From: Dehalococcoidia bacterium | GTDB taxonomy: Bacteria > Chloroflexota > Dehalococcoidia > SZUA-161 > SpSt-899 | Length of the DNA: 60,642 bases | NCBI GenBank assembly: GCA_028711995.1 | Contig: JAQTRE010000004.1 | Coordinates: forward strand, 1 to 60,642 | Direction of reading: 5' to 3' | Part shown: in pieces, positions 3,651 to 55,663 of the stretch | Numbering within the stretch: the stretch's first letter is position 1 | Layout: each line of letters starts with the position of its first letter | Made by a program: the position numbers and the translations under genes | Notes under the pieces: generated by a model | The model's input: the letters and a program-made list of their open reading frames with translations, nothing else | Told to the model about the DNA's origin: nothing | The model's database searches: none

Positions 3651-3803
3651 CTACGGCCTCCTTTTATTCAATCTATCCTTCATCGATGCAAAATCCCTTC
3701 TCGATGGTAGAGTCATTCACGCCAAGGATATAATAATGGTTGTAAGCCGTCAAATTCAATACCCCGCGCTGTTTTGTGCTAGGAAAACTCCTACTATAAG
3801 TCC

Positions 3804-18767: not shown

Positions 18768-18911
18768 ATTAAGTGGATGATTCTGTAGAGGTTCCGTTAC
18801 AGGATTGTGTTATAATGGATCGGTAAAAACGGCGCCAGATAATGGGGTCTGGTCCAAAGGAACGCTAGCACTTGCTTGGTTTTTCAGTGCTATGGGACTT
18901 CTTTTTCCCCG

Positions 18912-18986
18912 CTCCCCTTCGACAAGCTCAGGGCGAACGGAGAAAAAAGTGTTCCGTTCGTGGTGAGCTTGTCGAACCATGAACGG
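18912..18986. repeat. family B palindromic repeat
   Basis: ctccccttcgacaagctcagggcgaacgg..ccgttcgtggtgagcttgtcgaaccatgaacgg. Confidence 0.9.
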
Positions 18987-30824: not shown

Positions 30825-31048
30825 AACAAAAAATCCCTAAACCACTTATCTGGCTTAGGGATTTACCATCTCCCACGCACTCCGCCTTGAAGGCTTTGAG
30901 GGGATTTGCTGGCAGGTCTTCTGACTCCTGGGTCTTCCTACTCCTGGAGGCCTTCCCATTCCGTTAACACAGAACAGTGGCAGTTTCTCGAGTTTCGTCT
31001 CCAATCACAGCGGCGGGACCGCGACTGATTTTCACAGTCTTCCCTTTT
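30825..31048 (-). promoter_or_regulatory. cobalamin (AdoCbl) riboswitch with terminator-type expression platform, leader of cobT-cobS-cobC
   Basis: The minus strand reads ..gggaagactGTGAAAATCagtcgc..GCCACTG (rc of 30975-30981)..GGGAAGGCc..AGTCAGAAGACCTGCC (B12 box, rc of 30911-30926). This is followed by the hairpin aaatccctaa(n)ttagggattttttgtttt (30832-30864), immediately before the cobT SD. Confidence 0.9.
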
Positions 31049-31286
31049 TAAGCTTTGAAAGCACCAACAAACACCCGTATTCAGTTGCAGCCTTACTATA
31101 GCGAATTGATTTTTGGTTGTCAAAACGTACTATGGGGTCTTCTCTCAAAGTCGGAGATATGGTATAGTGAGAGAAAACTTGGATCAGGACTTCATCCACT
31201 ACGAATATCGAGTGAAGTCCCCTCTGCCAGGGTACAAAGGTTCCCCAGGCATGAACTGAGAAACCAAAACAAGAAGGAGGATGCCC

Positions 31287-34971: not shown

Positions 34972-35007
34972 CGGCCCGGATTGCATGATCGAACATACCA
35001 AGGGGAT

Positions 35008-35853
35008 ATGATGCAACTTATTACCGCCGGTGTAGATATCGGCTCGACGATGACCAAAGTAGTCCTGATGGATGCGAATATCAGGGCTTCGGTGATCGGC
35101 CCCACCGGGGCTGAGCATCGGCGGCTGGCCAACAAAGTGATGCAGCAGGCCCTGGAGAAAGCGCAACTCCCCTTTGAACAAGTCGCCTATGTCGTAGCTA
35201 CCGGCTATGGGCGCATCAACGTTCCCTTCGCCGATAAACAAATCACGGAGATCACCTGCCATGCCCGCGGCGTTTACAGCCTTTTCCCCACCGTTCGCAC
35301 TGTCATCGATATCGGCGGCCAGGACAGCAAGGCCATCAAGCTGGTCGATGGCAAGGTGTCCAACTTCGTTATGAATGACAAGTGCGCTGCAGGTACCGGC
35401 CGCTTTCTGGAAGTGATCGCTGAAGCCCTTGGGCTGGGCCTTGATGAGATGGCTCAACTCTCTCTGACGGCCACTAAGAAGGAGAATGTCAGCAGCACCT
35501 GTACCGTATTTGCCGAGCAGGAAATCGTCTCCCGCTTGTCTGAGGGAGCAGCAATAGAAAATGTGGCGGCCGGATTGTTCGAATCCATCGCCAGCCGGGT
35601 CTGCGGCATGGCCGATAGACTCAAGATAGAAAGGGATGTGGTGCTCACCGGCGGGGGAGCCAAGAATATCGGTTTAGTCAAGGCATTTGAAAACAGGCTC
35701 GGTTTCCGCCCTCTGGTGCCCGAGGAGCCACTGATCACCGGAGCCATCGGGGCTGCCTTGCTGGGCCGTGAATTGGCCCTCAAAGCGCTGGAGAGAGGCG
35801 AGGAATTGGGAGGCAAAAAGCGTCGGCTGGAGGAAGCCACCTTTTTCGGCTGA
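35008..35853 (+). CDS. BadF/BadG/BcrA/BcrD-family ATPase (2-hydroxyacyl-CoA dehydratase activator / HgdC-like), copy 1
   Basis: MMQLITAGVDIGSTMTKVVL (ASKHA phosphate-1), ATGYGR, IDIGGQDSK, cluster-ligand cysteines in NDKCAAGTGRFLE and SSTCTVFAEQE, LTGGGAKN. Confidence 0.88.
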   Translation: MMQLITAGVDIGSTMTKVVLMDANIRASVIGPTGAEHRRLANKVMQQALEKAQLPFEQVAYVVATGYGRINVPFADKQITEITCHARGVYSLFPTVRTVIDIGGQDSKAIKLVDGKVSNFVMNDKCAAGTGRFLEVIAEALGLGLDEMAQLSLTATKKENVSSTCTVFAEQEIVSRLSEGAAIENVAAGLFESIASRVCGMADRLKIERDVVLTGGGAKNIGLVKAFENRLGFRPLVPEEPLITGAIGAALLGRELALKALERGEELGGKKRRLEEATFFG

Positions 35854-35859
35854 GCAAAG

Positions 35860-35962
35860 TGTCTTTGCGAGGAGCCGCCAGGCGACGAAGCAATCTCAAG
35901 GCGAGCAAAGAGATTGCCGCACGGAGTTTATCCTGAGTTTACCGAAGGGTTCGCAATGACAG
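35860..35962. repeat. palindromic repeat (family A with a family B half) inserted between the two activase genes
   Basis: tgtctttgcgaggagccgccaggcgacgaagcaatctc..gagattgccgcacggagtttatcctgag..ttcgcaatgaca. Same arms as the repeats at 37566, 38673, 39744, 41652 and 43752. Confidence 0.85.
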
Positions 35963-35985
35963 ACACTCTATTGAGGACATGAAGA

Positions 35986-36780
35986 ATGATTTATGTAGCC
36001 GGAATTGATAGCGGTGCGGCCTACGCGAAAGCAGTGATCCTCGGCGATGGGATTATGGTTTCTCACCATGTGATGCTCTCCGGGAAGAACTACCGTGAGA
36101 CCGCTCGAGAAGTATTCCAAATCGCTCTGGACAAGGCGGGGATCAAGTTTCCGGAAATCGCTCTGATCGTTTCCACCGGATACGGGGCCGCCAACGTACC
36201 TTTTGAAAAGGAGCAGATGACCGAGATATCCTGCCAGGCGCGGGCTATCAGCCATCTGTTTCCCTCGGCCCGGACGGTGATTGACATCGGCGGGCAATCT
36301 ACTAAGATCATCAAACTGGATGGGAAAGGCCGCCCAGCCGACTTCACAGTCAATGAGAAGTGCGCTGCCGGCAGCGGCCGTTTTTTGCAGGTGATAGCCC
36401 GGGTTCTAGGAGTACCTCTGGAGGAGATCGGCCCGCTTTCCCTCAAGGCTACGAAGGTAGTCAAATTCACCACCAGTTGCGCTGTGTTCACCGAGTCTGA
36501 AGCCGTCTCACGGGTGGCTGAAGGCGAGAAGAAAGAGGATATCCTGGCCGGAGTTCACCACGCTATTGCCGTCAAGGTAGCCACTATGGTGGAGCGGGTC
36601 CGGATGGAAAAAGACTGCGTCATCACCGGCGGAGGCGCTAAAGACACTGGGCTGGTGAAGAGCATAGAGGAGAACACGAATTGCCAATTACTGGTGCCTC
36701 CGGAGCCTCAGTTGACCGCTGCGCTGGGGGCTGCGCTCATCGCCTGGGATAGGGTGCAAGAGAAGAAAGCCTCCGGTTGA
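35986..36780 (+). CDS. BadF/BadG/BcrA/BcrD-family ATPase (HgdC-like activator), copy 2
   Basis: MIYVAGIDSGAAYAKAVIL, STGYGA, IDIGGQSTK, NEKCAAGSGRFLQ, TTSCAVFTESE, ITGGGAKD. Ends ..AWDRVQEKKASG*. Confidence 0.88.
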   Translation: MIYVAGIDSGAAYAKAVILGDGIMVSHHVMLSGKNYRETAREVFQIALDKAGIKFPEIALIVSTGYGAANVPFEKEQMTEISCQARAISHLFPSARTVIDIGGQSTKIIKLDGKGRPADFTVNEKCAAGSGRFLQVIARVLGVPLEEIGPLSLKATKVVKFTTSCAVFTESEAVSRVAEGEKKEDILAGVHHAIAVKVATMVERVRMEKDCVITGGGAKDTGLVKSIEENTNCQLLVPPEPQLTAALGAALIAWDRVQEKKASG

Positions 36781-36807
36781 GCAGGCTAATCCACGAGAAG
36801 ATTACTT

Positions 36808-37140
36808 CTATTTTTCGGCAACAGAGACTGCGGATTCAAGCACTTCTGTAACCCAGGTGTTCACGCTCGTATTTTCCAGATTGGCTTTAATATGGATTTT
36901 GCGGTGGAGATCGGGCTCAAGTCTCAGCGTAAATTTGCCCGAGTATGGTTTCTCCGGTTTCTCTCCGCGTGTCTTACAGAAGTCTAGATAATCATCAATC
37001 GAATCCCGAAACGACTGAGTTATCTCTGCAACGGTTTGACCTTGAAAGGTGATGACATCTCTTGTATTAATTACCTCGCCGTGAAGGATACCGGCTTCCT
37101 CATCCAATTCAACCTTTCCGATGTATCCTTTGTATTCCAT
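36808..37140 (-). CDS. hicB: HicB-family antitoxin (with C-terminal RHH-like DNA-binding part)
   Basis: 110 aa. MEYKGYIGKVELDEEAGILHGEVIN..FQGQTVAEITQSFRDSIDDYLDFC..KPYSGKF.LRL. TAATG overlap with the upstream toxin gene. Confidence 0.8.
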   Translation of the reverse strand: MEYKGYIGKVELDEEAGILHGEVINTRDVITFQGQTVAEITQSFRDSIDDYLDFCKTRGEKPEKPYSGKFTLRLEPDLHRKIHIKANLENTSVNTWVTEVLESAVSVAEK

Positions 37141-37394
37141 TATGGTTCAACCCCCGCTTCTTTCAAGAACCTTTGCACGGATTTGACGGCACCTTTATCC
37201 GTCGTTTTTTGTGGATGCGGCCTGTGAAAAACAGCCCTTACACCTTGCAGTGCAACCCTGACTCGGGATCCTCGGCCTTCAGACAAGTCAGCTCCTACCG
37301 CTATGAATAGTGCCTCGATGTCTTTCCATAGGATGTCTGACCGAACGGGACTCTCGAAAATAGCGTCGAGCGTCTTCTGATGCCGCTTGTTCAC
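37140..37394 (-). CDS. hicA: HicA-family toxin
   Basis: 84 aa, GTG start. KTLDAIFESPVRSDILWKDIEALFIAVGADLSEGRGSRVRVAL.GV.AVFHRPHP...DKGAVKSV..FL is the HRPHP-type HicA family. Confidence 0.75.
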   Translation of the reverse strand: MNKRHQKTLDAIFESPVRSDILWKDIEALFIAVGADLSEGRGSRVRVALQGVRAVFHRPHPQKTTDKGAVKSVQRFLKEAGVEP

Positions 37395-37565
37395 AGATGT
37401 ATGGTGTCATAATATGCCACCATTGTCAATAACGCTTGTGATCTTGTGAGGCTCTCAGTGCCAGTTGTTGAGTTTGCTTTAATCCAGCCATCAAAATGCT
37501 CAAAAGCTGATGGCTCCTGACCCGGCGTATCCGGGAACAAATGCAACCGCGGAAAGCCCAGAGAA

Positions 37566-37672
37566 TGTCATTGCGAGCTCCGCAGGGGCGCGGCAACCTC
37601 CAAGAGCGCAGCTCTGTATTCCCCCTCTCCCCCCTGAGATTGCTTCGTCGCCAGTAGCTCCTCGCAAAGACA
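37566..37672. repeat. family A hairpin repeat
   Basis: tgtcattgcgagctccgcaggggcgcggcaacctc...ctgagattgcttcgtcgccagtagctcctcgcaaagaca. Confidence 0.85.
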
Positions 37673-37790
37673 TTTCTATTTTCATTTCTCAGCGATCCCC
37701 GGCGCTCTCTGCGGTGAAATTCAGGTAAGGTGGAACATTCCAGTATAAGCGGGTAAAATGAAGTATCGCTGGTTTCTGAGGAGAACCATT

Positions 37791-37982
37791 ATGGAAAAGA
37801 AACGATATGTATACTGGCAAGATGGAGAGATGTGGTTGGGTTATCTGGAAGAATACCCGGACTACATGTCTCAAGGCGAAACTCTGACCGAACTCAAGGA
37901 TAATTTGAAGGACATCATCTCAGATTTGCTGAGCGGCGAAATCCCGTGTGTTCGTAGAGTCGCCGAACTTGAAATAGTATGA
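37791..37982 (+). CDS. hicB: HicB-family (UPF0150) antitoxin
   Basis: MEKKRYVYWQDGEMWLGYLEEYPDYMSQGETLTELKDNLKDII. The ATG at 37791 has a gaggag SD. ATGA overlap with the next gene. Confidence 0.75.
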   Translation: MEKKRYVYWQDGEMWLGYLEEYPDYMSQGETLTELKDNLKDIISDLLSGEIPCVRRVAELEIV

Positions 37983-38155
37983 AAAGACGAGACTTGATTC
38001 GGGAACTGGAAAAGATGGGGTGTATTCTGATTCGACACGGTTCGAAGCATGATTGGTACCAAAACCCGTCCTCCAAAATATCGCAGCCGGTTCCAAGACA
38101 CAATGAGATAAAAGAATTCCTGGCCCGACACATCATCAAAATGCTCAAAAACTGA
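37979..38155 (+). CDS. hicA: HicA-family (YcfA-like) toxin, 58 aa, below the ORF-track size cutoff
   Basis: My translation: MKRRDLIRELEKMGCILIRHGSKHDWYQNPSSKISQPVPRHNEIKEFLARHIIKMLKN*. This is the canonical HicA pattern (L..L...G....R..GSH......P.....VP.H.EI......I.K.L). Confidence 0.8.
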   Translation: MKRRDLIRELEKMGCILIRHGSKHDWYQNPSSKISQPVPRHNEIKEFLARHIIKMLKN

Positions 38156-38395
38156 TGGCTCCTGATTCCCTCTCTTTCCCCCTATTGGTTCACTGGTAAC
38201 CCTTGTGCTGCTAATCAATTTTCATAGCAGCACGCCGCAACATGGATACCATTTTATAGCGCCGGAGGCTTCGTGGCCATGAACTCCCCCTAACCCCCTC
38301 TTTTCGAAAGAGGGGGAAGCGCGAATGCGCTGGGGGCGTTTGATATTGCGCAAGTAATTTGTCTGGCTGAGCCTTACAAAAAAGTGTTTCAATAT

Positions 38396-38636
38396 ATCCT
38401 GGCCGGAGTCCACCAACGCCATTGCAGTCAAGGTAGCCACCATGGTGGAGAAGGTCCGAATGGAAAAAGACTGCGTCATCACCGGCGGAGGCGCCAAGGA
38501 TATCGGGATGGTCAAGAGCGTGGAGGAGAACACGGGTTGCAGCCTATTGGTGCCGCCGGAGCCTCATCTCACCGCTGCCCTGGGGGCCGCACTCATTGTC
38601 TGGGATAGGGTGCAGGAAAAGAAAGCCTCCGGTTGA
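38396..38636 (+). pseudogene. detached copy 2 of the activase 3' end (corresponds to 36541-36780)
   Basis: Hand alignment gives about 34 mismatches plus a 1-nt insertion (caccaacgcc vs caccacgct) over 240 nt. It encodes MVEKVRMEKDCVITGGGAKDIGMVKSVEENTGCSLLVPPEPHLTAALGAALIVWDRVQEKKASG* but lacks the first ~180 codons of the gene. Confidence 0.85.
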
Positions 38637-38672
38637 GAAGGTAAATCCACGCTTAGTCGCTGAGAATAGGAA

Positions 38673-39045
38673 TGTCATTGCGAGCCCCGCAGGGGCGCGG
38701 CAATCTCCGTAATATCATCTCAGTATTCAGCCTCTCGCTCTCTCTGAGATTGCTTCGTCGCCGACGGCTCCTCGCAACGACACTTGAACTGTCATTGCGA
38801 ATGAAGTGTGGCAATCTCTCTTGTGCCTGCCCTGAGATTGCTTCGTCGCCGACGGCTCCTCGCAACGACACTTGAACTGTCATTGCGAATGAAGTGTGGC
38901 AATCTCTCTTGTGCCTGCCCTGAGATTGCTTCGTCGCCGGTGGCTCCTCGCAAAGACACTTGAACTGTCATTGCGAATGAAATGTGGCAATCTCCTTTTT
39001 CCCGCCCTGGGATTACTTCGTCGCCGATGGCTCCTCGCAAAGACA
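38673..39045. repeat. tandem array of family A hairpin repeats (88-bp period, about 4 units, preceded by a variant unit)
   Basis: ctgagattgcttcgtcgcc recurs at 38744, 38832 and 38920, with a variant ctgggattacttcgtcgcc at 39006. Each unit is gagattgc..ctcgcaacgac-acttgaact-gtcattgcga..gcaatctc. Confidence 0.9.
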
Positions 39046-39085
39046 TTTTTCTTTTCTGCGTTCTCTGCGGTGAAATTTTGACCAA

Positions 39086-39160
39086 TACCATGGCCGTCAA
39101 GATAGCCACCCTGGTAGAGCGGGTCCGGATGGAAAGGAGTCCGGCAAGTGAATCCCTCCC
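39086..39160 (+). pseudogene. copy 3 of the activase 3' region (5' stub only), truncated by the hicAB cassette
   Basis: accatggccgtcaagatagccaccctggtagagcgggtccggatggaaa matches 36562-36611. It then carries ggagtccggcaagtgaatccctcccc, shared with copies 4 and 5. Confidence 0.65.
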
Positions 39161-39164
39161 CAAC

Positions 39165-39389
39165 CTACAAAAGGGACCGGAACTCATCCCGGGTCATCTC
39201 GCAATCATGGAGGATCTTAGCCATAAGACCAGGGCCGATTATTTCGCCGCTATGCATGGGAACGACTGTGGTGCGACCATCCGAATGACGCATGAAGTGG
39301 TGACTACCTCTGACTCTGACAAGCTCAAAGCCTGCCCTGTGCAACGCAACGATAGTTTCCTTACCGGTGATTCTGAGAGGCCTTGTCAT
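39165..39389 (-). CDS. hicA: HicA-family toxin
   Basis: 74 aa. ITGKETIVALHRAGFELVRVRGSHHFMRHSDGRTTVVPMHSGEIIGPGLMAKIL. Confidence 0.85.
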   Translation of the reverse strand: MTRPLRITGKETIVALHRAGFELVRVRGSHHFMRHSDGRTTVVPMHSGEIIGPGLMAKILHDCEMTRDEFRSLL

Positions 39390-39601
39390 TGTGCCAGAAC
39401 AACCTTCTGCACCCCAATAAAGTCGAGAGCCTCAATATCTTCGCCCTCTACCTCAAGACACAGTTCAATGGCTTCTTGGATTCGTTCCATGACCTCATCG
39501 AGAGACTTGGCCTGGGTATGACAGGCACGCAGGGAAGGCACAGATGCAACATAGTAGCCCTCGGAGTCACGCTCAATGATGACGTTGAATTCCTTTTTCA
39601 T
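39386..39601 (-). CDS. hicB: HicB-family (UPF0150) antitoxin
   Basis: Real start MKKEFNVIIERDSEGYYVASVPSLRACHTQAKSLDEVMERIQEAIELCLE at 39601. The upstream part of the track ORF is a translated repeat. Confidence 0.8.
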   Translation of the reverse strand: MKKEFNVIIERDSEGYYVASVPSLRACHTQAKSLDEVMERIQEAIELCLEVEGEDIEALDFIGVQKVVLAQ

Positions 39602-39743
39602 CGGACACTTCCAGATTTTCGTTAGGCTTTGATTATACCGCATTGTATCTGATTCGTCATGGAGGTCACCAAAATGCTCAAAGGCTGATGGCTTCTGATC
39701 CGGCATAGCCGGAACCAAATGCAACAGAGGAAAGCCCAGAGGA

Positions 39744-39937
39744 TGTCATTGCGAGCCCCGCAGGGGCGCGGCAATCTCCGTAATATCATCTCAGTATTCA
39801 GCCTCTCTCCCCCTGAGATTGCTTCGTCGCCGGTGGCTCCTCGCAAAGACACTTGAACTGTCATTGCGAATGAAATGTGGCAATCTCCTTTTTCCCGCCC
39901 TGGGATTACTTCGTCGCCGACGGCTCCTCGCAAAGAC
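39744..39937. repeat. two family A hairpin repeats, near-identical to the outer units of 38673-39045
   Basis: 39745-39806 is almost letter-for-letter the same as 38674-38735 (gtcattgcgagccccgcaggggcgcggcaatctccgtaatatcatctcagtattcagcctctc). Confidence 0.9.
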
Positions 39938-39978
39938 ATTTTTCTTTTCTGCGTTCTCTGCGGTGAAATTTAGACCAA

Positions 39979-40192
39979 CGCCATTGCCGTCAAAGGTGGC
40001 CACACGGTGGAGCGGGTCCGTATGGAAAGGAGACGGGCAAGTGAATCCCTCCCGGCCTCCCTTTACGAAAGGGAGGAGCAAAAGTCCCCCTCTTTTGAAA
40101 GGGGGACTGCGAGGAGGATTTCCCGTTACGCCGCCCGGGGGGCTGCGCTCATTGCCCGGGATGGGGTGAGGGAGAAGAGAATCTCTGATTGA
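39979..40192 (+). pseudogene. copy 4 of the activase 3' end, with its centre replaced by G-rich palindromic repeats
   Basis: Keeps ..gccgtcaaaggtggccacacggtggagcgggtccgtatggaaa and ..gctgcgctcattgcccgggatggggtgagggagaag..tga. The middle is ggcaagtgaatccctcccggcctcccttt.cgaaagggagg..ccccctcttttgaaagggggac. Confidence 0.75.
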
Positions 40193-40208
40193 GAGACTGT
40201 GACCCGCT

Positions 40209-40406
40209 TCATCCTGCTATTTGCTGGTAAGAGAATTCACTGATATCCGTCTGGTGTTTGGCATGTTCAACCGTCATACTCACCAGTTGACCCTCCTTAT
40301 CCAATTCAACCAGGATAGTCTCGTTCAGGTCATGGGTATCGGCTATTCTTTTATCGCTGAAAGTCAGGAGCAAGGTATCGGTATCAGGGAAATATTTAAC
40401 TTTCAT
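40209..40406 (-). CDS. DUF2283-domain protein (antitoxin-like partner of DUF4258 toxins)
   Basis: 65 aa. MKVKYFPDTDTLLLTFSDKRIADTHDLNETILVELDKEGQLVSMTVEHAK. The upstream 61-aa ORF 40396..40581 may be a decayed toxin remnant, but I could not confirm it. Confidence 0.7.
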   Translation of the reverse strand: MKVKYFPDTDTLLLTFSDKRIADTHDLNETILVELDKEGQLVSMTVEHAKHQTDISEFSYQQIAG

Positions 40407-40573
40407 GTATCCACCTCAGTTGGATATCTTTCCGATCCTCTCGCTGACGTGTGTAAAGGAAATATTGGGTGAACCTCATGCCTTGCGCCCTCTTTTGTAC
40501 TCCAACTATATTTCCATCGATAGGGTTTGTCAAGATGAAAAGATTGTTTTGTGAATCGGGATTCCTCAATAGG

Positions 40574-40769
40574 GCCACCATGGTAGAGCGGGTCCGGGTG
40601 GAAAGGAGCCCGGCAAGTGAATCCCTCCCGGCCTCCCTTTCTGAAAGGGAGGAGCAAGCGTCCCCCTTTTTTGAAAGGGGGACTGCGAGGGGGATTTCCC
40701 GTTACGCTGCCCTGGGGGCTGCGCTCATTGCCTGGGATAGGGTGCAGGAAAAGAAAGCCCTCCGGTTGA
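40574..40769 (+). pseudogene. copy 5 of the activase 3' end, same derived structure as copy 4
   Basis: gccaccatggtagagcgggtccgggtggaaaggagcccggcaagtgaatccctccc ... gctgcgctcattgcctgggatagggtgcaggaaaagaaagccctccggttga. Confidence 0.8.
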
Positions 40770-40828
40770 GAAAGAGAAGACAAGCAAATACACGTATTTG
40801 TCCTCGCATAAATGAAGGTGAGACAAAA

Positions 40829-40860
40829 GGGAACAGGCACCTCACTGGGTACCTGTTCCC
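40829..40860. terminator. hairpin between copy 5 and the pilin gene
   Basis: gggaacaggcacc-tcactg-ggtacctgttccc followed by tctttat. Lies 3' of the minus-strand pilin gene. Confidence 0.55.
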
Positions 40861-40895
40861 TCTTTATCTAACTTCTACGTCAACCATCCGAGTCT

Positions 40896-41348
40896 TTACG
40901 GATACCATTCTTGAACAACTTGTCCGTTTGCATCTACTGTGTAGTGTCCCTGAATGGCGGTTGCCCCACCACCGATTAAAGTAGTCAGGTCATCAGTACC
41001 ATCGCCATTTAAGTCAACATCGATGCTGGGAGTGGTGCCATCCTCATCATCATCACCAAAATCTAATGCAGTTGTTATTGGAGTACAGACCGGCGGAGTA
41101 GTAGTAGTGCAGTTCGACACAGCCCCTATGCCAAGATCAGCCATGGCTGCGGTTACCGCCAACTGAATGTTATCCAACTCCGTATCGGCAGCCGCTTCAT
41201 CACCACTCCCGATAAACTTACTCACATTGGGAACCACTACGGCTGCCAGCACGCCCAGGATGGCCACCACCACCAATAGTTCAATCAGGGTAAAGCCTTT
41301 TTCCTTGCGGCTGGTCTTCTTCACGGGTTTTTTTACAGGTGTTGTCAT
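40896..41348 (-). CDS. type IV pilin / pseudopilin with prepilin N-terminal cleavage-methylation motif
   Basis: 150 aa. ..KEKG|FTLIELLVVVAILGVLAAVVVPNV. C-terminal acidic DDDEDGTTPSIDVDLNGDGTDDL (DxNxDGxxD-like Ca-binding loop). Confidence 0.88.
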   Translation of the reverse strand: MTTPVKKPVKKTSRKEKGFTLIELLVVVAILGVLAAVVVPNVSKFIGSGDEAAADTELDNIQLAVTAAMADLGIGAVSNCTTTTPPVCTPITTALDFGDDDEDGTTPSIDVDLNGDGTDDLTTLIGGGATAIQGHYTVDANGQVVQEWYP

Positions 41349-41651
41349 ATCTTGTTTCCTCCTTTATTTTGGGCAACTTGGGTTGCCCTGCCTAAATGAC
41401 ATCGGGTTCATGATTGCTGTTGTTCCCGCTATCTACAATTCTCCACCTCCTGATGCCTAGTTGGTAAATAATCCGTAAACATTAACAGGTGATTAAATGT
41501 TATTCCGTGAGCCCATCAGGGTAAATAGCCCAAAAGGGGTAGACGGAGTGGGTATATCGTACTAGGGGGCGCAACTGTCTTTATTCAACGCCCCCTGCAG
41601 CTTTGCCGCTTCCCCCTCTTTGCGAAAGAGGGGGACCAGAGGGGGAGTTTC

Positions 41652-41775
41652 GAGATTGCCGCGCGGAGTTTATCCTGAGCCCTTCGACACGCTCAGGACA
41701 GGCCTGACGAAGGGCTCGCCATGACAGGCCAAATGTCTTTGCGAGGGAGCCACCGGCGACGAAGCAATCTCAGGG
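41652..41775. repeat. composite family A/B palindromic repeat
   Basis: gagattgccgcgcggagtttatcctgagcccttcgacacgctcaggacaggcctgacgaagggctcgccatgaca..tgtctttgcgagggagccaccggcgacgaagcaatctc. Confidence 0.8.
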
Positions 41776-41826
41776 CAGGCGGAGAGAGCTTGCAGAATGC
41801 TCGATTAATCACACCGAACTACACAA

Positions 41827-41855
41827 TTGCACGGAAAGCGTGAATCAGATATAAT
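41827..41855 (+). promoter_or_regulatory. sigma70-like promoter of higBA
   Basis: TTGCAC, 17 nt, TATAAT, ending 18 nt before the GTG at 41874. Confidence 0.5.
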
Positions 41856-41873
41856 TTCACTTGTGAGGGCAAC

Positions 41874-42164
41874 GTGATTGAATCCTTTGGTAACGGCGCA
41901 ACAGAAGACCTGTACCACGGACGCAGCACGAATCGAGTGCGTCGTTTCCCGCCGGAGATAAGAATCATGGCTGTTCGTAAACTGGATATTCTCAATGCGG
42001 CCCATCGTTTGGAAGACCTGCGTGAACCGCCCGGCAATCGTTTGGAGACCTTAAGAGGCGACTTGCTGGGTTATCATAGTATCCGCGTCAATGATCAATG
42101 GAGGATTATTTTCCAGTGGGAAAACAACAACGCCTATGCGGTATCGTTGACGGACTATCACTGA
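41874..42164 (+). CDS. higB: HigB-type toxin (plasmid maintenance killer protein, RelE/ParE superfamily)
   Basis: 96 aa. IESFGNGATEDLYHG...RFPPEI...A.RKLD.LNAA..LEDLREPPGNRLE.L.GDL.GYHSIRVNDQWRIIFQWE...A..V.L.DYH. Confidence 0.88.
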   Translation: MIESFGNGATEDLYHGRSTNRVRRFPPEIRIMAVRKLDILNAAHRLEDLREPPGNRLETLRGDLLGYHSIRVNDQWRIIFQWENNNAYAVSLTDYH

Positions 42165-42182
42165 GCAAAAGAGGGAAGAGAG

Positions 42183-42470
42183 ATGTTGCCGGAAAATAGA
42201 GTAACCACGCACCCTGGAGAGATACTGAAAGCGGAGTTCCTGGATCCGATGGGGATAACGCAGATGGCGTTTGCACAACACATTGGGGTACCGCTACAGC
42301 GGGTGAATGAAGTGATACGGGGTAAGCGAGGGGTCACACCCGAAACAGCGTGGCTGTTTTCACAAGCCCTGGGAACAACTCCTCAGTTCTGGATGAACCT
42401 GCAAAACGCCTATGATCTGACCAGCAAGCGACCGCAACGGTCAGTGGAACGTTTGGCGAAGGCTGCATAA
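42183..42470 (+). CDS. higA: HigA-family antitoxin (XRE-type HTH)
   Basis: 95 aa. HPGEILKAEFLDPMGITQMAFAQHIGVPLQRVNEVIRGKRGVTPETAWLFSQALGTTPQFWMNLQNAYDL. Confidence 0.9.
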   Translation: MLPENRVTTHPGEILKAEFLDPMGITQMAFAQHIGVPLQRVNEVIRGKRGVTPETAWLFSQALGTTPQFWMNLQNAYDLTSKRPQRSVERLAKAA

Positions 42471-42597
42471 ACTGTATCCAGGTTGAGGTGATGGTCTGAT
42501 GAAAGGTGGGGCAATCCCCCTATTTGACGGATGGGCTGGTTTATGGCAAGCTAAGGATCGGATGGGATCGTTTCATCATCGTTCAGGAGATTAAGTT

Positions 42598-42795
42598 ATG
42601 TCTACATCTGTGAAGCAACTTCTCGATACTTTCGATCGTTTGCCTGATGCGGACAAGCGGGAAATGGCAGCTGAAATAATGCGCCGCACGGTGAAGCTTG
42701 ACCTGTCACCTCTAGCAGATGAATATCTCGTTTTGAATGCGGAAGACCTATTTCTGGAACTCGATAAAAGAGAGTCTTTAGCTATTGGCCTCTGA
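42598..42795 (+). CDS. small acidic antitoxin-like protein (addiction-module-component-like), no adjacent toxin
   Basis: 65 aa. VKQLLDTFDRLPDADKREMAAEIMRR..EDLFLELDKRE. Good SD (aggaga). The family assignment is tentative. Confidence 0.4.
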   Translation: MSTSVKQLLDTFDRLPDADKREMAAEIMRRTVKLDLSPLADEYLVLNAEDLFLELDKRESLAIGL

Positions 42796-42959
42796 TCCAC
42801 GGCACAACAGCCTCCCCCAGCGCATGAGTTTTCTTAGCCTCAAAGACCCCAATAATGACATGGCAAATGTCTTTGCGAGAAACGGATACCGCCGGCGGCG
42901 GCATACACCCAAATAGAAACTGTCACTTGGGCCTTTGTCTACCCCACCCCAGGAGAAGG

Positions 42960-43002
42960 GTTGTTGCAGGGAGTTGCGCTTGGCGCAACTCCCTGCAACA
43001 AC
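42960..43002. repeat. perfect 20-bp-stem hairpin
   Basis: gttgttgcagggagttgcgc-ttg-gcgcaactccctgcaacaac. Confidence 0.95.
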
Positions 43003-43146
43003 AAACACTTTCCCCCATGATTGGGGGATCAAGGGGGTTGACCCGCTGGAACGGCGTATGAGCATCACGAGTTTCTGAGTAGGAACGGCAGGTGATTGAT
43101 CTGACATGAGGTTGAGTTGTACATGCAAAAGATGTACAATCAGGCT

Positions 43147-43431
43147 ATGAGATACGAGTGGGACCCGCAGAAGAACGAGCGGCTGAAGGAAGAACGGGGC
43201 ATCTCTTTCGAGAAAATAGTGTTTCATCTGTCTCAAGGCGACGTCTGGAAGATTGCCGATCATCCCGACCAGGAGAATTATCCAGAGCAGAAGATATATT
43301 TCGTCATTGTGGAGGGTTATGTTTATCTTGTGCCTCATGTTGTTGAAAGGGATTACATTTTCTTGAAGACGATCATTCCCAGCAGAAAGACAACCAGAGA
43401 GTACAAGAAGGATAAGGAGGCTGAAATATGA
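43147..43431 (+). CDS. brnT: BrnT-family toxin (DUF497)
   Basis: MRYEWDPQKNERLKEERGISFEKIVF...YFVIVEGYVYLVPHV..D.IFLKTIIPSRK. An upstream ATG at 43123 is an alternative start. Confidence 0.8.
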   Translation: MRYEWDPQKNERLKEERGISFEKIVFHLSQGDVWKIADHPDQENYPEQKIYFVIVEGYVYLVPHVVERDYIFLKTIIPSRKTTREYKKDKEAEI

Positions 43432-43700
43432 AACACGACAAAGAAGAAAAGACCATCATTAATGCTTACGAAACCGGCAGTATGAAACTCTCGACTCCGT
43501 CTGAAGCGGAAATCGCAGCCATTAAAGCCACGGCACGGAAGACGCTGGTAAAAGACAAACGGATCACTATCCGGCTTTATGAGCATGATTATCGCGGCAT
43601 CCAGAAGAAAGCTCTGGAAATGGGCATCCCCTATCAGACGCTGATCTCCGGAATAATTCATCGATACATTGAAGGCGACCTGACCTCGAAAACCGGATAA
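43428..43700 (+). CDS. brnA: BrnA-type antitoxin (RHH/CopG-like)
   Basis: 90 aa. KDKRITIRLYEHDYRGIQKKALEMGIPYQTLISGIIHRYIEGDL. ATGA overlap with brnT. Confidence 0.8.
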   Translation: MKHDKEEKTIINAYETGSMKLSTPSEAEIAAIKATARKTLVKDKRITIRLYEHDYRGIQKKALEMGIPYQTLISGIIHRYIEGDLTSKTG

Positions 43701-43751
43701 CCCTGTCAATTCAGACCGCAAGGGCATCCTCCGTTAGCATGACACGTCAAA

Positions 43752-43846
43752 AGTCTTTGCGAGGAGCTACCGGGAGACGAAGCAATCTCAAGGCAGGCGC
43801 AAGCAGAGATTGCCGCGCCCCGATTTCATCGGGACTCGCAATGACA
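43752..43846. repeat. family A hairpin repeat
   Basis: agtctttgcgaggagctaccgggagacgaagcaatctcaaggcaggcgcaagcagagattgccgcgcc..ctcgcaatgaca. Confidence 0.85.
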
Positions 43847-44222: not shown

Positions 44223-44981
44223 TTGATATTCGTAATGTTCCTGATCGGGATTGCGATCGGCAGCTTCCTGAATGTGGTCATCGACCGCCTGCCGGAAGGC
44301 CAATCTCTGGTGCGGCCTCCTTCCCATTGCCCCAACTGTGGAAATCGTCTGGCGAGAAAGGACCTGATCCCACTGATTAGCTATCTCCGGTTGAGAGGTC
44401 GCTGCCGATACTGCCAGGCTCACATCCCATGGCGGCTTTTCTGCATAGAACTAGCAACGGGGATTATCTTCGCCCTTTTGTGGTGGCATTACGGCTCTGA
44501 AGCTGAATTCGCGATCATGGCTGTTTACAGTTGTATCTTCCTGGTGATCTTCGTCATCGACCTGGATCACTGCCTGATTCTGGACAAAGTAGTGTTTCCA
44601 GCGAGCGTCTTTGCGCTGGCTACCATCCCCCTTCGCGACGATATCACCATCACCGAATCGCTGATCGGCGGCGTCAGCGGCCTAGTCCTCCTTGGCCTGG
44701 TGGTCTGGGTTGTGCCGATGATGATTGGCCGTGAAGCCATGGGATTGGGAGATGTCAAAATGGCCCTCCTGATGGGGCTGGCAAACGGAGTTGCGGGGAT
44801 ATTCGTGGCCCTGTTTGTGGGCATCGTCACCGGGGGGCTGGTGGCTATCGCATTAGTATTGTTGAAACTGAGAGGACGAAAGGATGCCATTCCCTTTGGC
44901 CCGTTTCTGGCCATCGGAGCCATGACCGCCTTGCTATGGGGGAGTGATATCTGGGATTGGTATACCCATCCGTTCAACTAG
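44223..44981 (+). CDS. pilD: prepilin peptidase (A24 family, PilD-like)
   Basis: 252 aa. GSFLNVVIDRLPEGQSLVRPPSHCPNCGNRL...DLIPL.SYL.LRGRCRYC zinc-finger N-terminus, GLGDVKM and PFGPFLA active-site regions. Confidence 0.92.
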   Translation: MIFVMFLIGIAIGSFLNVVIDRLPEGQSLVRPPSHCPNCGNRLARKDLIPLISYLRLRGRCRYCQAHIPWRLFCIELATGIIFALLWWHYGSEAEFAIMAVYSCIFLVIFVIDLDHCLILDKVVFPASVFALATIPLRDDITITESLIGGVSGLVLLGLVVWVVPMMIGREAMGLGDVKMALLMGLANGVAGIFVALFVGIVTGGLVAIALVLLKLRGRKDAIPFGPFLAIGAMTALLWGSDIWDWYTHPFN

Positions 44982-45025
44982 TACTTGCTCAGATTGGTCT
45001 GCGTTATGGGCCTTTTCTTCCCCGA

Positions 45026-45096
45026 TCCCCTTCGACAAGCTCAGGGCGAACGGGGAAGAAAAGGTGTTCCGTTCGTGGTGAGCCTGTCGAACCATC
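45026..45096. repeat. family B palindromic repeat
   Basis: ccccttcgacaagctcagggcgaacgg..ccgttcgtggtgagcctgtcgaaccat. Almost identical to 18912-18986. Its antisense translation gives the spurious peptide MVRQAHHERN. Confidence 0.9.
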
Positions 45097-53273: not shown

Positions 53274-53369
53274 TGGCGGGAGCGAGGGGAGTCGAACCAC
53301 CACGAGCATCGCGAGATACCCGCCAACGGTTTTGAAGACCGCGAGCACCACCGGGCACCATTCGCTCCC
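53274..53369 (-). tRNA. selC: tRNA-Sec (anticodon UCA)
   Basis: The minus strand reads GGGAGCGAAUGGUGCCCGGUGGUGCUCGCGGUCUUCAAAACCGUUGGCGGGUAUCUCGCGAUGCUCGUGGUGGUUCGACUCCCCUCGCUCCCGCCA (96 nt). 8-bp acceptor stem GGGAGCGA/UCGCUCCC, G73 plus an encoded CCA, anticodon loop CUUCAAA, long variable arm, GGUUCGACUCC T-loop. The layout parallels E. coli selC. The T-stem has one U:C mismatch. Confidence 0.85.
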
Positions 53370-53374
53370 TAGAT

Positions 53375-54598
53375 TCAAACATGAGCAATTTCCCGACGCC
53401 ACATTGGGCCCAGAAAGGATTTTGCTAACCGTTTGCTAACCGAGACCTGTTCAATGCTGTCTTTCAGGCTCTCTTCAAATCGCAAGGCCGCTGCCTCTTG
53501 AATGCCTTCGGTCACATGACTGTACCTGTCCAACGTGATGCTTATCGTGCTGTGACCTAGCCTTTCACTCACAATCTTGGGATGGACGCCTTCCCGTAAC
53601 ATCAACGACGCGTGTGTGTGGCGCAGGCTCTTCAAGCTCAACTCGGGCTGGCCGATGTTCCGGGCGATGGTCTTGAAGCAGCGGGTAATGGTATAAGGCT
53701 TGATATAACTTCCGTCCGGCCGGGCGAAAACCAAGTCATTCGGTCTGAGCGGCAATCCAAGCTCCCGGCGAATGTTCTCTTGCGCTGCCTTATGTTCGCG
53801 CAACAGAAGCGCCACAGACGATGAGAGACTGATCAGCCGTTTGCCCCGCTTTGACTTGGGTTCCCGCAGGATAAATTCACCGTTGCGCAGCCGGTGAAGG
53901 CTCTCGACGACCGATAGGTGACACAGGTCCAAGTCAACCCGAGACCATTTCAAGGCCAGAATTTCGGATCGCCGCATTCCGGTGAATAAGTCGAGGTAAA
54001 ATACCACGTAATAGGGCGATTTCTGGGCCGCCTGCAGGAACCGGGTCACATGATCATGCTCGACCGTCACCATTTCGCAATGCTTGGGCTGGGGCGGTGT
54101 GCAGGCTGAAGCCGGATTCCGGGCAAGAAGACCTTGACGAACCGCCGTTTCCAAGGCGACATGCAAGAGGTGATGGAAGTGCAGCACGGTCTGAGCACTT
54201 AGTCCGCCCTTACCATCAACCCGCCCGACCTTCAGGGCCTTAGTGTAATAGCTTTGGATACGGGCCGGCTTCAAATCGGACAGAGGAATTCTCCCAAATT
54301 CGGGCACCAGGTGCAGCCGGATGATCTCCGCGTAGCGATCGGCCACTTGGGGAGATAGATTCACACTATAGTCTTGAATCCATTGCGTCAGAAACTGGCC
54401 CGTTGTCAGCTTTGAAGGCGAGACATAGGCACCGGTGTCCATCTCGTGAAGAACATCGGCGAGTTTTGCCTCCGCTTGCTTGCGGGTTCCTTGAACCGTG
54501 AGCCATTGCTGCTTGCGCTTCCCGGTTTCATCCTTACCCTGGTTGATGACCAGGCTCCAGGATCCTTTGCTGCGTTTGACCAGGTGTCCGCGTGCCAT
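53375..54598 (-). CDS. int: tyrosine-type site-specific integrase
   Basis: 407 aa. N-terminal arm-binding-like GHLVKRSKGSWSLVINQGKDETGKRKQQW, SAM-like core-binding domain, catalytic RRSEILAL...LRHTHASLML..GVHPKIVSERLGHSTISITLDRYSH (R..HxxR..Y). The stop is 5 nt from the tRNA-Sec 5' end. Confidence 0.93.
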   Translation of the reverse strand: MARGHLVKRSKGSWSLVINQGKDETGKRKQQWLTVQGTRKQAEAKLADVLHEMDTGAYVSPSKLTTGQFLTQWIQDYSVNLSPQVADRYAEIIRLHLVPEFGRIPLSDLKPARIQSYYTKALKVGRVDGKGGLSAQTVLHFHHLLHVALETAVRQGLLARNPASACTPPQPKHCEMVTVEHDHVTRFLQAAQKSPYYVVFYLDLFTGMRRSEILALKWSRVDLDLCHLSVVESLHRLRNGEFILREPKSKRGKRLISLSSSVALLLREHKAAQENIRRELGLPLRPNDLVFARPDGSYIKPYTITRCFKTIARNIGQPELSLKSLRHTHASLMLREGVHPKIVSERLGHSTISITLDRYSHVTEGIQEAAALRFEESLKDSIEQVSVSKRLAKSFLGPMWRREIAHV

Positions 54599-54634
54599 GA
54601 TACTCCCATTATATCCAATTTGCGGCCTTTGGTG

Positions 54635-55294
54635 TTACTTTGTCTTCTTCTTTCTTTTTGGAACCGGCAACGGTCCCCGCATTTCACATGGTTCAGATGT
54701 TTCTATCACGGTCCCCGCAAAGCTAACAAATAGCTTATCGTCCGGCTGGAGCTGTTTATAAGCCGACAGAAAAGCCTTCTGGTTCTGTTCGCTTTGCCAT
54801 GGCGCGTACCTCACGGCCATACTGACATAAGGCTCATGTCCACCGACACGCAATTCAGCCAAGGCTTTGGCATTTTCGAACGGAATCTCTGGGCAACGGC
54901 TCGCAATCTCAATCAGCTCAGCAGCCACCTTCTGACGAGTAGCATTGCCATTTGCCTCCGTTATGTCAACAAAGGCCAGCACCCACCCCGCTATCTCTGG
55001 GGATACCCCCTTTTTGATCAAACTCTGCACCGTCCAAGTAGATCCCGTTCCAGGCTTCCCGCCGGTTTTGGGCAGTTCCGGGGCCTTGGCTTCGTGGGTT
55101 AGCTGGACTGCGGTTTGTTTCAGTGTGATGGTGCCTTCACGCACCCCTCTTTCCCAGAGATAGAGTGTTTTTTCATGACGCGGTGCATTCTCGCCGAATT
55201 CCTCCTCTAGTATTTCAAGAACGTCCGAACGTTTCTTCGTTTTACGAAGCTCTAATGCCCTCTTGACGATATCTTCATTGCGAACCCGTGTCAT
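54635..55294 (-). CDS. hypothetical protein, occupies the repressor position next to int
   Basis: 219 aa. No motif recognised beyond a helical N-terminus and a basic tail PKRKKKTK. Co-directional with int and divergent from xis. Confidence 0.5.
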   Translation of the reverse strand: MTRVRNEDIVKRALELRKTKKRSDVLEILEEEFGENAPRHEKTLYLWERGVREGTITLKQTAVQLTHEAKAPELPKTGGKPGTGSTWTVQSLIKKGVSPEIAGWVLAFVDITEANGNATRQKVAAELIEIASRCPEIPFENAKALAELRVGGHEPYVSMAVRYAPWQSEQNQKAFLSAYKQLQPDDKLFVSFAGTVIETSEPCEMRGPLPVPKRKKKTK

Positions 55295-55386
55295 GATAAC
55301 CCCTATCCTAATACATACTTATCTACTTGCCATATAAATTACTATGTAATGCAATCATAATTATCTAAATGCCGTTTACGAATTCT

Positions 55387-55415
55387 ATATTATTGTTTTA
55401 GACTGGAACTGTCAA
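55387..55415 (-). promoter_or_regulatory. near-consensus leftward promoter in the AT-rich switch region
   Basis: The minus strand reads TTGACA (55415-55410), 17 nt, TAATAT (55392-55387). A weaker rightward TTGCCA-17-TGCAAT lies at 55327-55355, so the two would fire face to face. Confidence 0.4.
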
Positions 55416-55446
55416 GACTTAGCAATACCTGAGGGAGGTTCATAAC

Positions 55447-55629
55447 ATGGATAAAGTTCTGTTAACTCTGGAGGAAACGAGACAGCAGTATATCCCAGTG
55501 GGCAGAAATCGTATCTATGAGCTGGCAGCCGAAGGCAAACTACCCATCATTCGCTTCGGAAGGAAAATTTTTGTCAACCGTATCGCCTTGGAAAAAATGC
55601 TTGCAGAGGCTGCAAGTTCTGTTCAGTAA
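55447..55629 (+). CDS. xis: excisionase/AlpA-like helix-turn-helix protein
   Basis: 60 aa. LLTLEETRQQYIPVGRNRIYELAAEGKLPIIRFGRKIFVNRIALEKML is an HTH_17/MerR-like excisionase pattern. gagggagg SD. Confidence 0.8.
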   Translation: MDKVLLTLEETRQQYIPVGRNRIYELAAEGKLPIIRFGRKIFVNRIALEKMLAEAASSVQ

Positions 55630-55663
55630 CCCGAGGGGAGAGCTTGGATAGGAGGTGTTGTGA

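Follow-up and report, generated by a model that had tools for sequence, protein, structure and literature searches.

Direct repeats of an ATPase gene 3′ end interleaved with toxin-antitoxin genes in the chromosome of an uncultured Dehalococcoidia bacterium

Here we describe an array of repeated gene ends and toxin-antitoxin (TA) genes in a stretch of 60,642 nucleotides (nt) of DNA (the window; contig JAQTRE010000004.1, assembly GCA_028711995.1). The host belongs to the Dehalococcoidia and is uncultured; its ClpC protein has its best named relatives in that class, at 82 to 83% identity, and the window is chromosomal, with housekeeping neighbors that include cobalamin, haem, ETF, ClpC, and RadA genes. 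The array begins at the second of two genes for BcrAD/BadFG-type ATPases (“activases”). The last 242 nt of this gene, together with 15 nt of flank, are repeated at four places downstream, each time in the orientation of the gene, and the five direct repeats of the gene end delimit four intervals, with units of 0.4 to 1.6 kb. A preliminary description of this DNA had reported five same-orientation copies of the activase 3′ end, and these were borne out with small coordinate shifts only. The ATPase genes, the copies, and the distal flank of the array are as follows.

34981 to 35853, plus strand: BcrAD/BadFG-type ATPase (activase) gene, first of the pair (Pfam PF01869, E = 4.6e-65)
35986 to 36780, plus strand: second BcrAD/BadFG-type ATPase gene, 264 amino acids (aa), intact, the proposed target gene (PF01869, E = 1e-57)
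36539 to 36795, plus strand: copy 1, the in-frame gene 3′ end and 15 nt past the stop (BLASTN, MAFFT, repeat search)
38394 to 38651, plus strand: copy 2, full-length displaced 3′ end (BLASTN, MAFFT)
39084 to 39160, plus strand: copy 3, a 5′ stub whose last ~25 nt (39136 to 39160) are the start of a palindromic insert
39978 to 40193, plus strand: copy 4, with both ends kept, a 99-nt insert (40029 to 40127) as its center, and a strongly decayed 3′ part
40566 to 40772, plus strand: copy 5, with the same insert at 40605 to 40703 (BLASTN, MAFFT)
40896 to 41348, minus strand: type IV pilin-like gene, distal flank of the array (Pfam N_methyl, E = 2.7e-10)

The second ATPase gene is complete: its Pfam match spans the full profile, and its length equals that of its orthologues. 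No genes for HGD-D (dehydratase/reductase subunits) lie beside the ATPase pair (34981 to 36780). Two distant homologues (L009 and L019) sit in operons of two HGD-D and two BcrAD genes, and the locus of a closer relative (L004), as judged from its list of open reading frames (ORFs) alone and not from Pfam, has no large ORF pair upstream of the ATPase pair.

The copies were established by BLASTN of positions 36480 to 36830 against the window, whole-window self-BLASTN, a repeat search, and MAFFT alignment; the self-comparison, which had been put forward earlier as a check, fixed the repeat borders and identities. Copy 2 is 85.3% identical to copy 1 over 258 columns, with 37 mismatches and a single 1-nt insertion near its 5′ edge, after which 73 codons are open and end in ..WDRVQEKKASG followed by the stop. 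The preliminary description had thus been right about its full length, its insertion, and its end, and had undercounted its mismatches at about 34. The repeats and their borders can be observed directly. Copy 2 starts sharply (36539/38394), within the codons of the conserved DILAGVH motif, and its likeness to copy 1 continues past the stop codon to ..CCACG, 15 nt on, as had been noted before; both borders are sharp. Single-strand folding of the repeat’s 5′ edge is unremarkable (z = −0.55). Decay grows with distance from the gene, copy 2 being nearly intact and copies 3 to 5 disrupted. The 5′ stub (copy 3) and the two copies with G-rich palindromic centers (copies 4 and 5) of the earlier account were found at refined coordinates. 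The 3′ part of copy 5 shares 94% identity with copy 2 and 92% with copy 1; for that of copy 4, identity to copy 1 is only about 78%.

The divergence between copies 1 and 2 carries a signature of selection that is measured directly. Over the 65 codons comparable with orthologues, the two copies differ at 31 nt but only 8 amino acids (dN = 0.092, dS = 0.53). Changes were assigned to branches with the closest orthologue, L007, as the reference (91% protein and 86.7% nt identity over the gene). L007 belongs to a second population sequenced in the same run, SRR22315508; its gene ends earlier (..WDRVKQ and stop), and its downstream flank differs. The copy 2 branch carries 13 synonymous and 6 nonsynonymous changes, and the copy 1 branch carries 7 changes. 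With 25 to 29% synonymous changes expected under neutrality, the 13 of 19 on the copy 2 branch have a P value of 8e-5 to 4e-4. This excess indicates that copy 2 spent most of its history within a working gene. Over 195 nt, copy 1 and L007 differ at 23 positions, copies 1 and 2 at 31, and copy 2 and L007 at 35, which places copy 2 outside the pair formed by copy 1 and L007. We conclude that copy 2 is not a decayed local duplicate and that its history passed mostly in a working gene of a different lineage; consequently, either copy 1 or copy 2 was imported. The preliminary description had expected a 3′ fragment to appear foreign when set against orthologues, and the position of copy 2 agrees with that expectation. 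Since the L007 population is present in the same run, a potential donor lineage co-occurs with the host.

Copies 3, 4, and 5 share the exact breakpoint at which the gene sequence gives way to the palindromic insert (..ATGGAAA/GGAG.C.GGCAAGTGAATCCCTCCC, with the slash at the breakpoint), a direct observation. In copies 4 and 5, the center (equivalent to 36607 to 36714) is swapped for a G-rich element of 99 nt that has inverted ends and contains two hairpins (DNA fold z-score, −3.4), after which the gene sequence picks up again at the identical point. Because an insertion plus deletion common to all three cannot arise thrice, these copies represent one lineage and not independent insertions, and the earlier equation of five copies with four serial insertions had to be abandoned. 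Two other features concern the same region. Positions 38918 to 39160 and 39811 to 40053 form a 94% identical duplicate that comprises a cluster of repetitive extragenic palindromes (REPs), the stub, and part of the insert, with arbitrary ends. Copy 5 has a hybrid makeup: copies 3 and 4 are the ones that its 5′ part and insert resemble (89 to 91%), whereas its 3′ part resembles copy 2. Judged from these alignments, copies 3 to 5 go back to one dead fragment that duplication or gene conversion multiplied, the array holds no more than three independent gene-end alleles, and its distal half was reshaped by homologous recombination, duplication, or gene conversion.

The intervals between the copies hold the cargo genes, noncoding repeats, and small blocks listed here.

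36808 to 37140 (hicB) and 37140 to 37394 (hicA), minus strand: hic cassette 1 (Pfam HicB, E = 1.6e-21; HicA_toxin, E = 2.2e-12)
37489 to 37564, plus strand: 76-nt block, consisting of a 32-nt copy of the hicA-2 3′ end (..IKMLKS and stop) and then a small hairpin
37565 to 37724, plus strand: REP cluster 1, units D8-D1-D13 (repeat search)
37758 to 37982 (HicB-like) and 37979 to 38155 (hicA), plus strand: hic cassette 2 (UPF0150, 22.9 bits; HicA_toxin, E = 5.6e-12)
38166 to 38393: noncoding spacer with a G-rich palindromic element (38282 to 38343), directly upstream of copy 2
38672 to 39080, plus strand: REP cluster 2, with D8, three 88-nt units, D1, and D13
39165 to 39389 (hicA) and 39386 to 39601 (HicB-like), minus strand: hic cassette 3 (HicA_toxin, E = 5.6e-17; HicB_lk_antitox, E = 1.2e-6)
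39743 to 39973, plus strand: REP cluster 3, which follows a 76-nt block (39667 to 39742)
40209 to 40406, minus strand: solitary DUF2283 gene (Pfam PF10049, E = 2.9e-14)

The cargo genes are directly observed: Pfam confirms the TA cassettes in either orientation that had been described between the copies, namely, three hic pairs and the DUF2283 gene. The three adjacent HicA/HicB gene pairs are type II TA (hicAB) modules, with the qualification that the UPF0150 match of the cassette 2 antitoxin lies below the curated Pfam cutoff. For the HicB-like protein of cassette 3, the 71-aa form is the one recorded in the public collection. An ORF upstream of the DUF2283 gene (40396 to 40581) has no family match. 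The three hicAB pairs are mutually unrelated by BLASTP, the protein collection contains each cargo protein only as a singleton at 90% identity, and the G+C content of the cargo (0.47 to 0.51) is below that of the flanks (0.53 to 0.58). Two more TA modules lie beyond the array between the pilin and prepilin peptidase genes: a higBA module (41874 to 42470) and a brnTA-like module (43117 to 43700), both Pfam matches of the latter being below the curated cutoff. These two have REP copies at their flanks and no gene-end fragments, which shows that TA genes accumulate here independently of the fragments.

The remaining space between the copies is taken up by the three REP clusters, which are made of a structured 88-nt repeat. 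This repeat has the core GAGATTGCTTCGTCGCC and an outer stem (GAGATTGC/GCAATCTC) around an inner hairpin, and two of its units (38744 to 38831 and 38832 to 38919) are identical to each other. The 17-nt REP core has 10 matches in the window, all within 35847 to 43814 and none in the other 52 kb. One REP copy lies between the two ATPase genes, and REP orientation flips across the pilin gene. The 32-nt block CATCAAAATGCTCAAAAGCTGATGGCTCCTGA corresponds to the final seven codons of hicA-2 plus its stop codon and contains a short inverted repeat. It occurs at 37489 to 37520, 38134 to 38165, and 39667 to 39698, in one orientation and once per hic cassette border; none of these three occurrences would be expected by chance, and two are upstream of minus-strand operons. 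The block may have been left behind by replaced cassettes or may serve as a recombination site. The former is the simplest reading and suffices, because the block simply is the end of hicA-2. The 76-nt block at 39667 to 39742 is the counterpart of that at 37489 to 37564, and the first two units have one layout: gene-end fragment, minus-strand hic operon, 76-nt block, and REP cluster. Their backbones (37489 to 37686 and 39667 to 39865) are 84% identical by self-BLASTN, close to the 85% of the gene-end fragments, whereas their hic genes are unrelated. The units would suit a single type of small element represented by two divergent members, an argument that is only moderate because part of the backbone is multicopy REP sequence.

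We interpret the array, with moderate confidence, as a decayed scar, left where foreign DNA repeatedly entered the second ATPase gene at its 3′ end. Each incoming element would have brought its own copy of this end. At each insertion, the element-borne end would fuse to the gene, which would stay intact (the end now in place being copy 1), and the old end, from the crossover point to just past the stop, would be displaced downstream; the displaced ends would be, in order, copy 2 and then the ancestor of copies 3 to 5. The elements would later have lost all but their self-stabilizing TA modules, whose genes may survive because losing them is selected against. Two palindromic repeat families would then have invaded the noncoding DNA, one of them hitting a dead fragment, and this damaged fragment would have reached three places via local duplication or gene conversion. 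The events probably took place in that order. Insertion would have been the work of a site-specific recombinase, since lost or encoded elsewhere, a step to which geometry and precedent both point. The sharp start, the run past the stop, the common orientation, the intact gene, the synonymous divergence, and the decay gradient together make up the geometry of elements that target gene 3′ ends. Of these, the decay gradient is what nested insertion at a gene end would predict, and the lower G+C content of the cargo also speaks for insertion. Insertion with a replacement end at a gene 3′ end had been the core of the preliminary proposal, and this core is supported by the purifying selection under which copies 1 and 2 diverged, by the position of copy 2 outside copy 1 and L007, and by the shared borders, with the number of insertions revised as above.

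Several findings weigh against this interpretation. Copies 3 to 5 lack the repeat’s 5′ edge, the presumed crossover point, and share their insert. Their attachment sites are therefore probably dead, and their spread with differing cargo between them calls for a second process, be it recombination, duplication, or conversion. At that edge, the first 22 nt of copy 1 (36539 to 36560) match the start of copy 2 at 21 positions, which by itself is not significant (about P = 0.14 at an 85% background). Divergence from L007 is 14.1% before position 36539 and 13.3% after it, and without a step at the junction copy 1 cannot be shown to be an imported end. No ORF in the 36.8- to 44.2-kb region matches a recombinase or integrase, a remnant of one, or a transfer gene, in agreement with the earlier statement that no integrase or transposase gene lies there. 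The sole recombinase of the window, at 53.4 kb, fits a separate island at a tRNA-Sec gene and not the array. Viral contigs scanned with the C-terminal 80 aa of the activase gave no match, and a DNA-pattern scan of the same kind of contigs with an 18-nt edge motif returned only one hit, attributable to chance, in a structural gene of a phage. No element with an activase fragment next to an integrase was present in the window, the viral-contig scans, or the fetched orthologue loci. The lineage is without close relatives in the collections, the window proteins being singletons at 90% identity. The search for empty sites that the preliminary description had proposed yielded, among the retrieved relatives, neither an empty site nor a second array, so that the mechanism is one we infer. 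The region around the window’s sole recombinase comprises the following.

53275 to 53370, minus strand: tRNA-Sec gene, with the tyrosine integrase gene on its 5′ side
53375 to 54598, minus strand: PF00589 tyrosine integrase gene, adjoining tRNA-Sec
55664 to 58393: NrS-1-like primase-polymerase gene, after the integrase gene and one unknown gene

This region (53275 to 58393, continuing to the end of the window) has the look of an integrative element or island of its own; no repeat of the tRNA-Sec gene was found within the window. Neither the window nor the viral scans nor the surroundings of the fetched orthologues yielded a related autonomous element whose integrase would share the site specificity proposed for the array. 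BLASTN of 36500 to 40900 against plasmids and phages returned generic hicAB similarity only or nothing, and Rfam gave no match in the array. ATPase scans of genome and metagenome contigs recovered only relatives of 69 to 75% identity, with the tandem pair and no extra fragments, and more distant ATPase homologues on long contigs lay in operons of HGD-D and BcrAD genes without repeats. Of the relatives anchored on ClpC, L026 loses synteny, and L027 ends 213 nt upstream of the prepilin peptidase gene. Three short activase ORFs (P0124, P0125, and P0129) were rejected as additional fragments, because the assemblies that contain them are riddled with frameshifts and have many broken genes. In one relative of 69% identity (L001), a 253-nt inverted repeat (3466 to 3718 and 8690 to 8942; 77% identity) was observed, with one arm just downstream of the ATPase gene.

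Four other explanations were weighed against an insertion scar. That strain variants of a single locus were chained into a false tandem array during assembly is extremely unlikely. The contig is derived from a metagenome, the run also contains a related population, and the region is rich in repeats, including the two 88-nt units that are 100% identical. However, the copies are just 78 to 94% identical, with few long exact words in common, and their 5′ junctions lie in unique sequence, both of which make such chaining implausible. An independent Logan assembly of run SRR22315508 also contains 36609 to 38307 and 40493 to 41775 at 100% identity, so the junctions from copy 1 to cargo and from cargo through copy 5 to the pilin gene are not the quirk of one assembler; the support of this second assembly covers those two segments, and the interior (38.3 to 40.5 kb) comes from one assembly. 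A purely local history, in which the gene end or a whole extra copy was duplicated by unequal crossing-over and decayed, with TA cassettes and repeats arriving between the copies later and no foreign ends involved, we regard as improbable. Copies 3 to 5 clearly derive locally from one another, the REP clusters and tandem 88-nt units mark a region prone to local duplication, TA cassettes also lie outside the array (41.9 to 43.7 kb), and the ratio of 19 changes in copy 2 to 7 in copy 1, taken alone, fits a neutral sequence beside a constrained one. This history founders on copy 2, for which 13 synonymous changes of 19 reject neutral decay (P about 1e-4), and on copy 1, which is nearer the orthologue of another organism than it is to copy 2. 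It could be rescued by a third full-length paralogue that was long under selection and then truncated, with a second truncation falling within about 20 to 40 nt.

Homologous recombination on its own could also have stacked the cassettes, and we consider this unlikely, if less so than a purely local origin. Under this explanation, TA cassettes of different strains, lying between shared noncoding flanks (the fragment on one side and the REP cluster or pilin gene on the other), would re-enter via RecA with no dedicated recombinase, from imported DNA or looped-out circles. Recombination within the repeats of ~200 to 300 nt and unequal exchange would stack them, and the fragments would serve as portable homology. 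It accounts well for the distal half of the array: the 94% identical repeats that flank cassette 3 have arbitrary ends, with the look of a Campbell-type or unequal crossover and unlike short att sites; copy 5 is a hybrid of the other copies (89 to 91% to copies 3 and 4, 94% to copy 2); and no recombinase is nearby. It leaves unexplained the sharp first border in a conserved motif, the end just past the stop, and the arrival of the first foreign gene end, and it needs strain diversity, whereas the cargo proteins are all singletons at 90% identity. The preliminary description had instead favored an integron-like platform. A platform that captures cassettes by means of an unrecognized or distant recombinase, acting within the repeats or on the 32-nt block, is in our judgment very improbable. 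The homologous flanks around unrelated TA cargo, the three occurrences of CATCAAAATGCTCAAAAGCTGATGGCTCCTGA in one orientation and always at a hic cassette border, and the restriction of the REP family to an 8-kb region of the window speak for it. Against it, a crude consensus scan for attC sites (RYYYAAC..GTTRRRY, without a covariance model) found two pairs per strand in 60 kb and none at cassette borders, the lone attC-type pair of the array region being inside the DUF2283 gene. No integron integrase was found in the window in a Pfam scan of ORFs of at least 150 aa that did not merely overlap identified genes. The 32-nt block can be explained as a remnant of replaced cassettes, and REPs also occur between the ATPase genes and, reversed, around higBA and brnTA. 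The idea of an integron-like platform thus has little support, given the lack of such R-box pairs at cassette borders and the presence of higBA and brnTA nearby without fragments, and an integron proper was rejected, there being no attC-like sites and no intI. A related proposal, that the fragments are working attachment sites of miniature mobile cassettes made up of TA genes only and shuffled beside the ATPase gene, is likewise improbable. The shuffling would then be the work of a recombinase encoded elsewhere in the genome or of host recombination via fragment homology, and such a platform would be analogous to an integron in function, unrelated to it, and anchored on the end of a protein gene.

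Insertion at a gene end, as we propose for the array, has precedents, contrary to the earlier view that no such system had been described. Prophage e14 of Escherichia coli inserts into the 3′ end of the protein-coding gene icd and leaves a C-terminal pseudogene, icdC (PMC13626634). As in the array, the target of e14 (and of phage 21) is the 3′ end of a housekeeping protein gene, a replacement end keeps the gene intact, the old end persists downstream, oriented like the gene, as a C-terminal fragment, and most differences between the attached and displaced ends are synonymous (PMC13626634). The two cases differ in that e14, a prophage of 15 kb, encodes an integrase and has displaced just one fragment, whereas the array has five fragments, TA genes only, and no integrase. 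Tandem accretion of such elements and their decay to integrase-less cis-mobilizable elements (CIMEs) between repeats of the target end have also been described (PMC5704250). CIMEs, such as those related to ICESt1 at the 3′ end of fda in Streptococcus thermophilus, resemble the array in their tandem arrangement at the end of a protein gene and their direct repeats, and some, like the units of the array, have lost their integration and transfer genes and are still bounded by repeats (PMC5704250). They are recognized by an autonomous relative with an integrase of the same specificity, none of which was found for the array, and the array differs further in that three of its five copies are without the presumed crossover edge. 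The repeats at fda are tens of bases long, compared with about 255 in the array.

The islands at ssrA in Dehalococcoides, a member of the same bacterial class as the host of the array, are multiple and tandem, lie downstream of a single-copy gene, and carry direct repeats of its 3′ end; some are without an integration module and have been suggested to be cis-mobilizable (PMC3146451). These islands target a transfer-messenger RNA gene and have 20-bp repeats, kilobase size, a serine-recombinase module, and rdhA cargo, whereas the array has a protein-coding target, repeats of about 255 nt, and only TA genes as cargo. Chromosomal integrons and clusters of attC sites lacking integron integrases (CALINs) resemble the array in that small TA cassettes that contain promoters follow one another in either orientation, away from any recombinase; in contrast to CALINs, the array is bordered by gene-end fragments and REP clusters and not by attC hairpins, and intI is absent from the window. 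Taken together, these comparisons make the array look like a known process, in which gene-end-targeting elements insert, accrete, and decay, that here has a new target and has left only TA modules. There is no evidence for new recombination machinery or a new mechanism.

If the interpretation as an insertion scar is correct, the locus records (i) a pile-up of integrative elements at the end of a protein-coding gene, (ii) the paring down of these elements to addiction modules and attachment scars, and (iii) one route to “TA islands” in the streamlined genomes of uncultured Dehalococcoidia. The BcrAD/HgdC-type ATPase gene would then be a new protein-coding integration target. Pseudogene fragments of a gene end that share the orientation of the live gene and differ from it chiefly by synonymous changes would mark past integration where no integrase survives; island finders that require an integrase would overlook such loci.

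Two further kinds of system were considered and rejected. A diversity-generating retroelement was dismissed on the lack of a reverse transcriptase domain in the Pfam scans and on the mismatches between copies 1 and 2, which are of all types and not adenine specific. Orphan modules of a polymorphic toxin were dismissed as well: the fragments encode the same C terminus or are disrupted, and the genes between them are complete hicAB pairs.

Elsewhere in the window, an interspersed repeat family is represented at 18865 to 18980 and 44978 to 45095 (119 nt, 85% identity), and shorter relatives occur near 24.0 kb. A cobalamin riboswitch (30894 to 31083; 115 bits) lies on the minus strand upstream of cobT/cobS/cobC-type genes.

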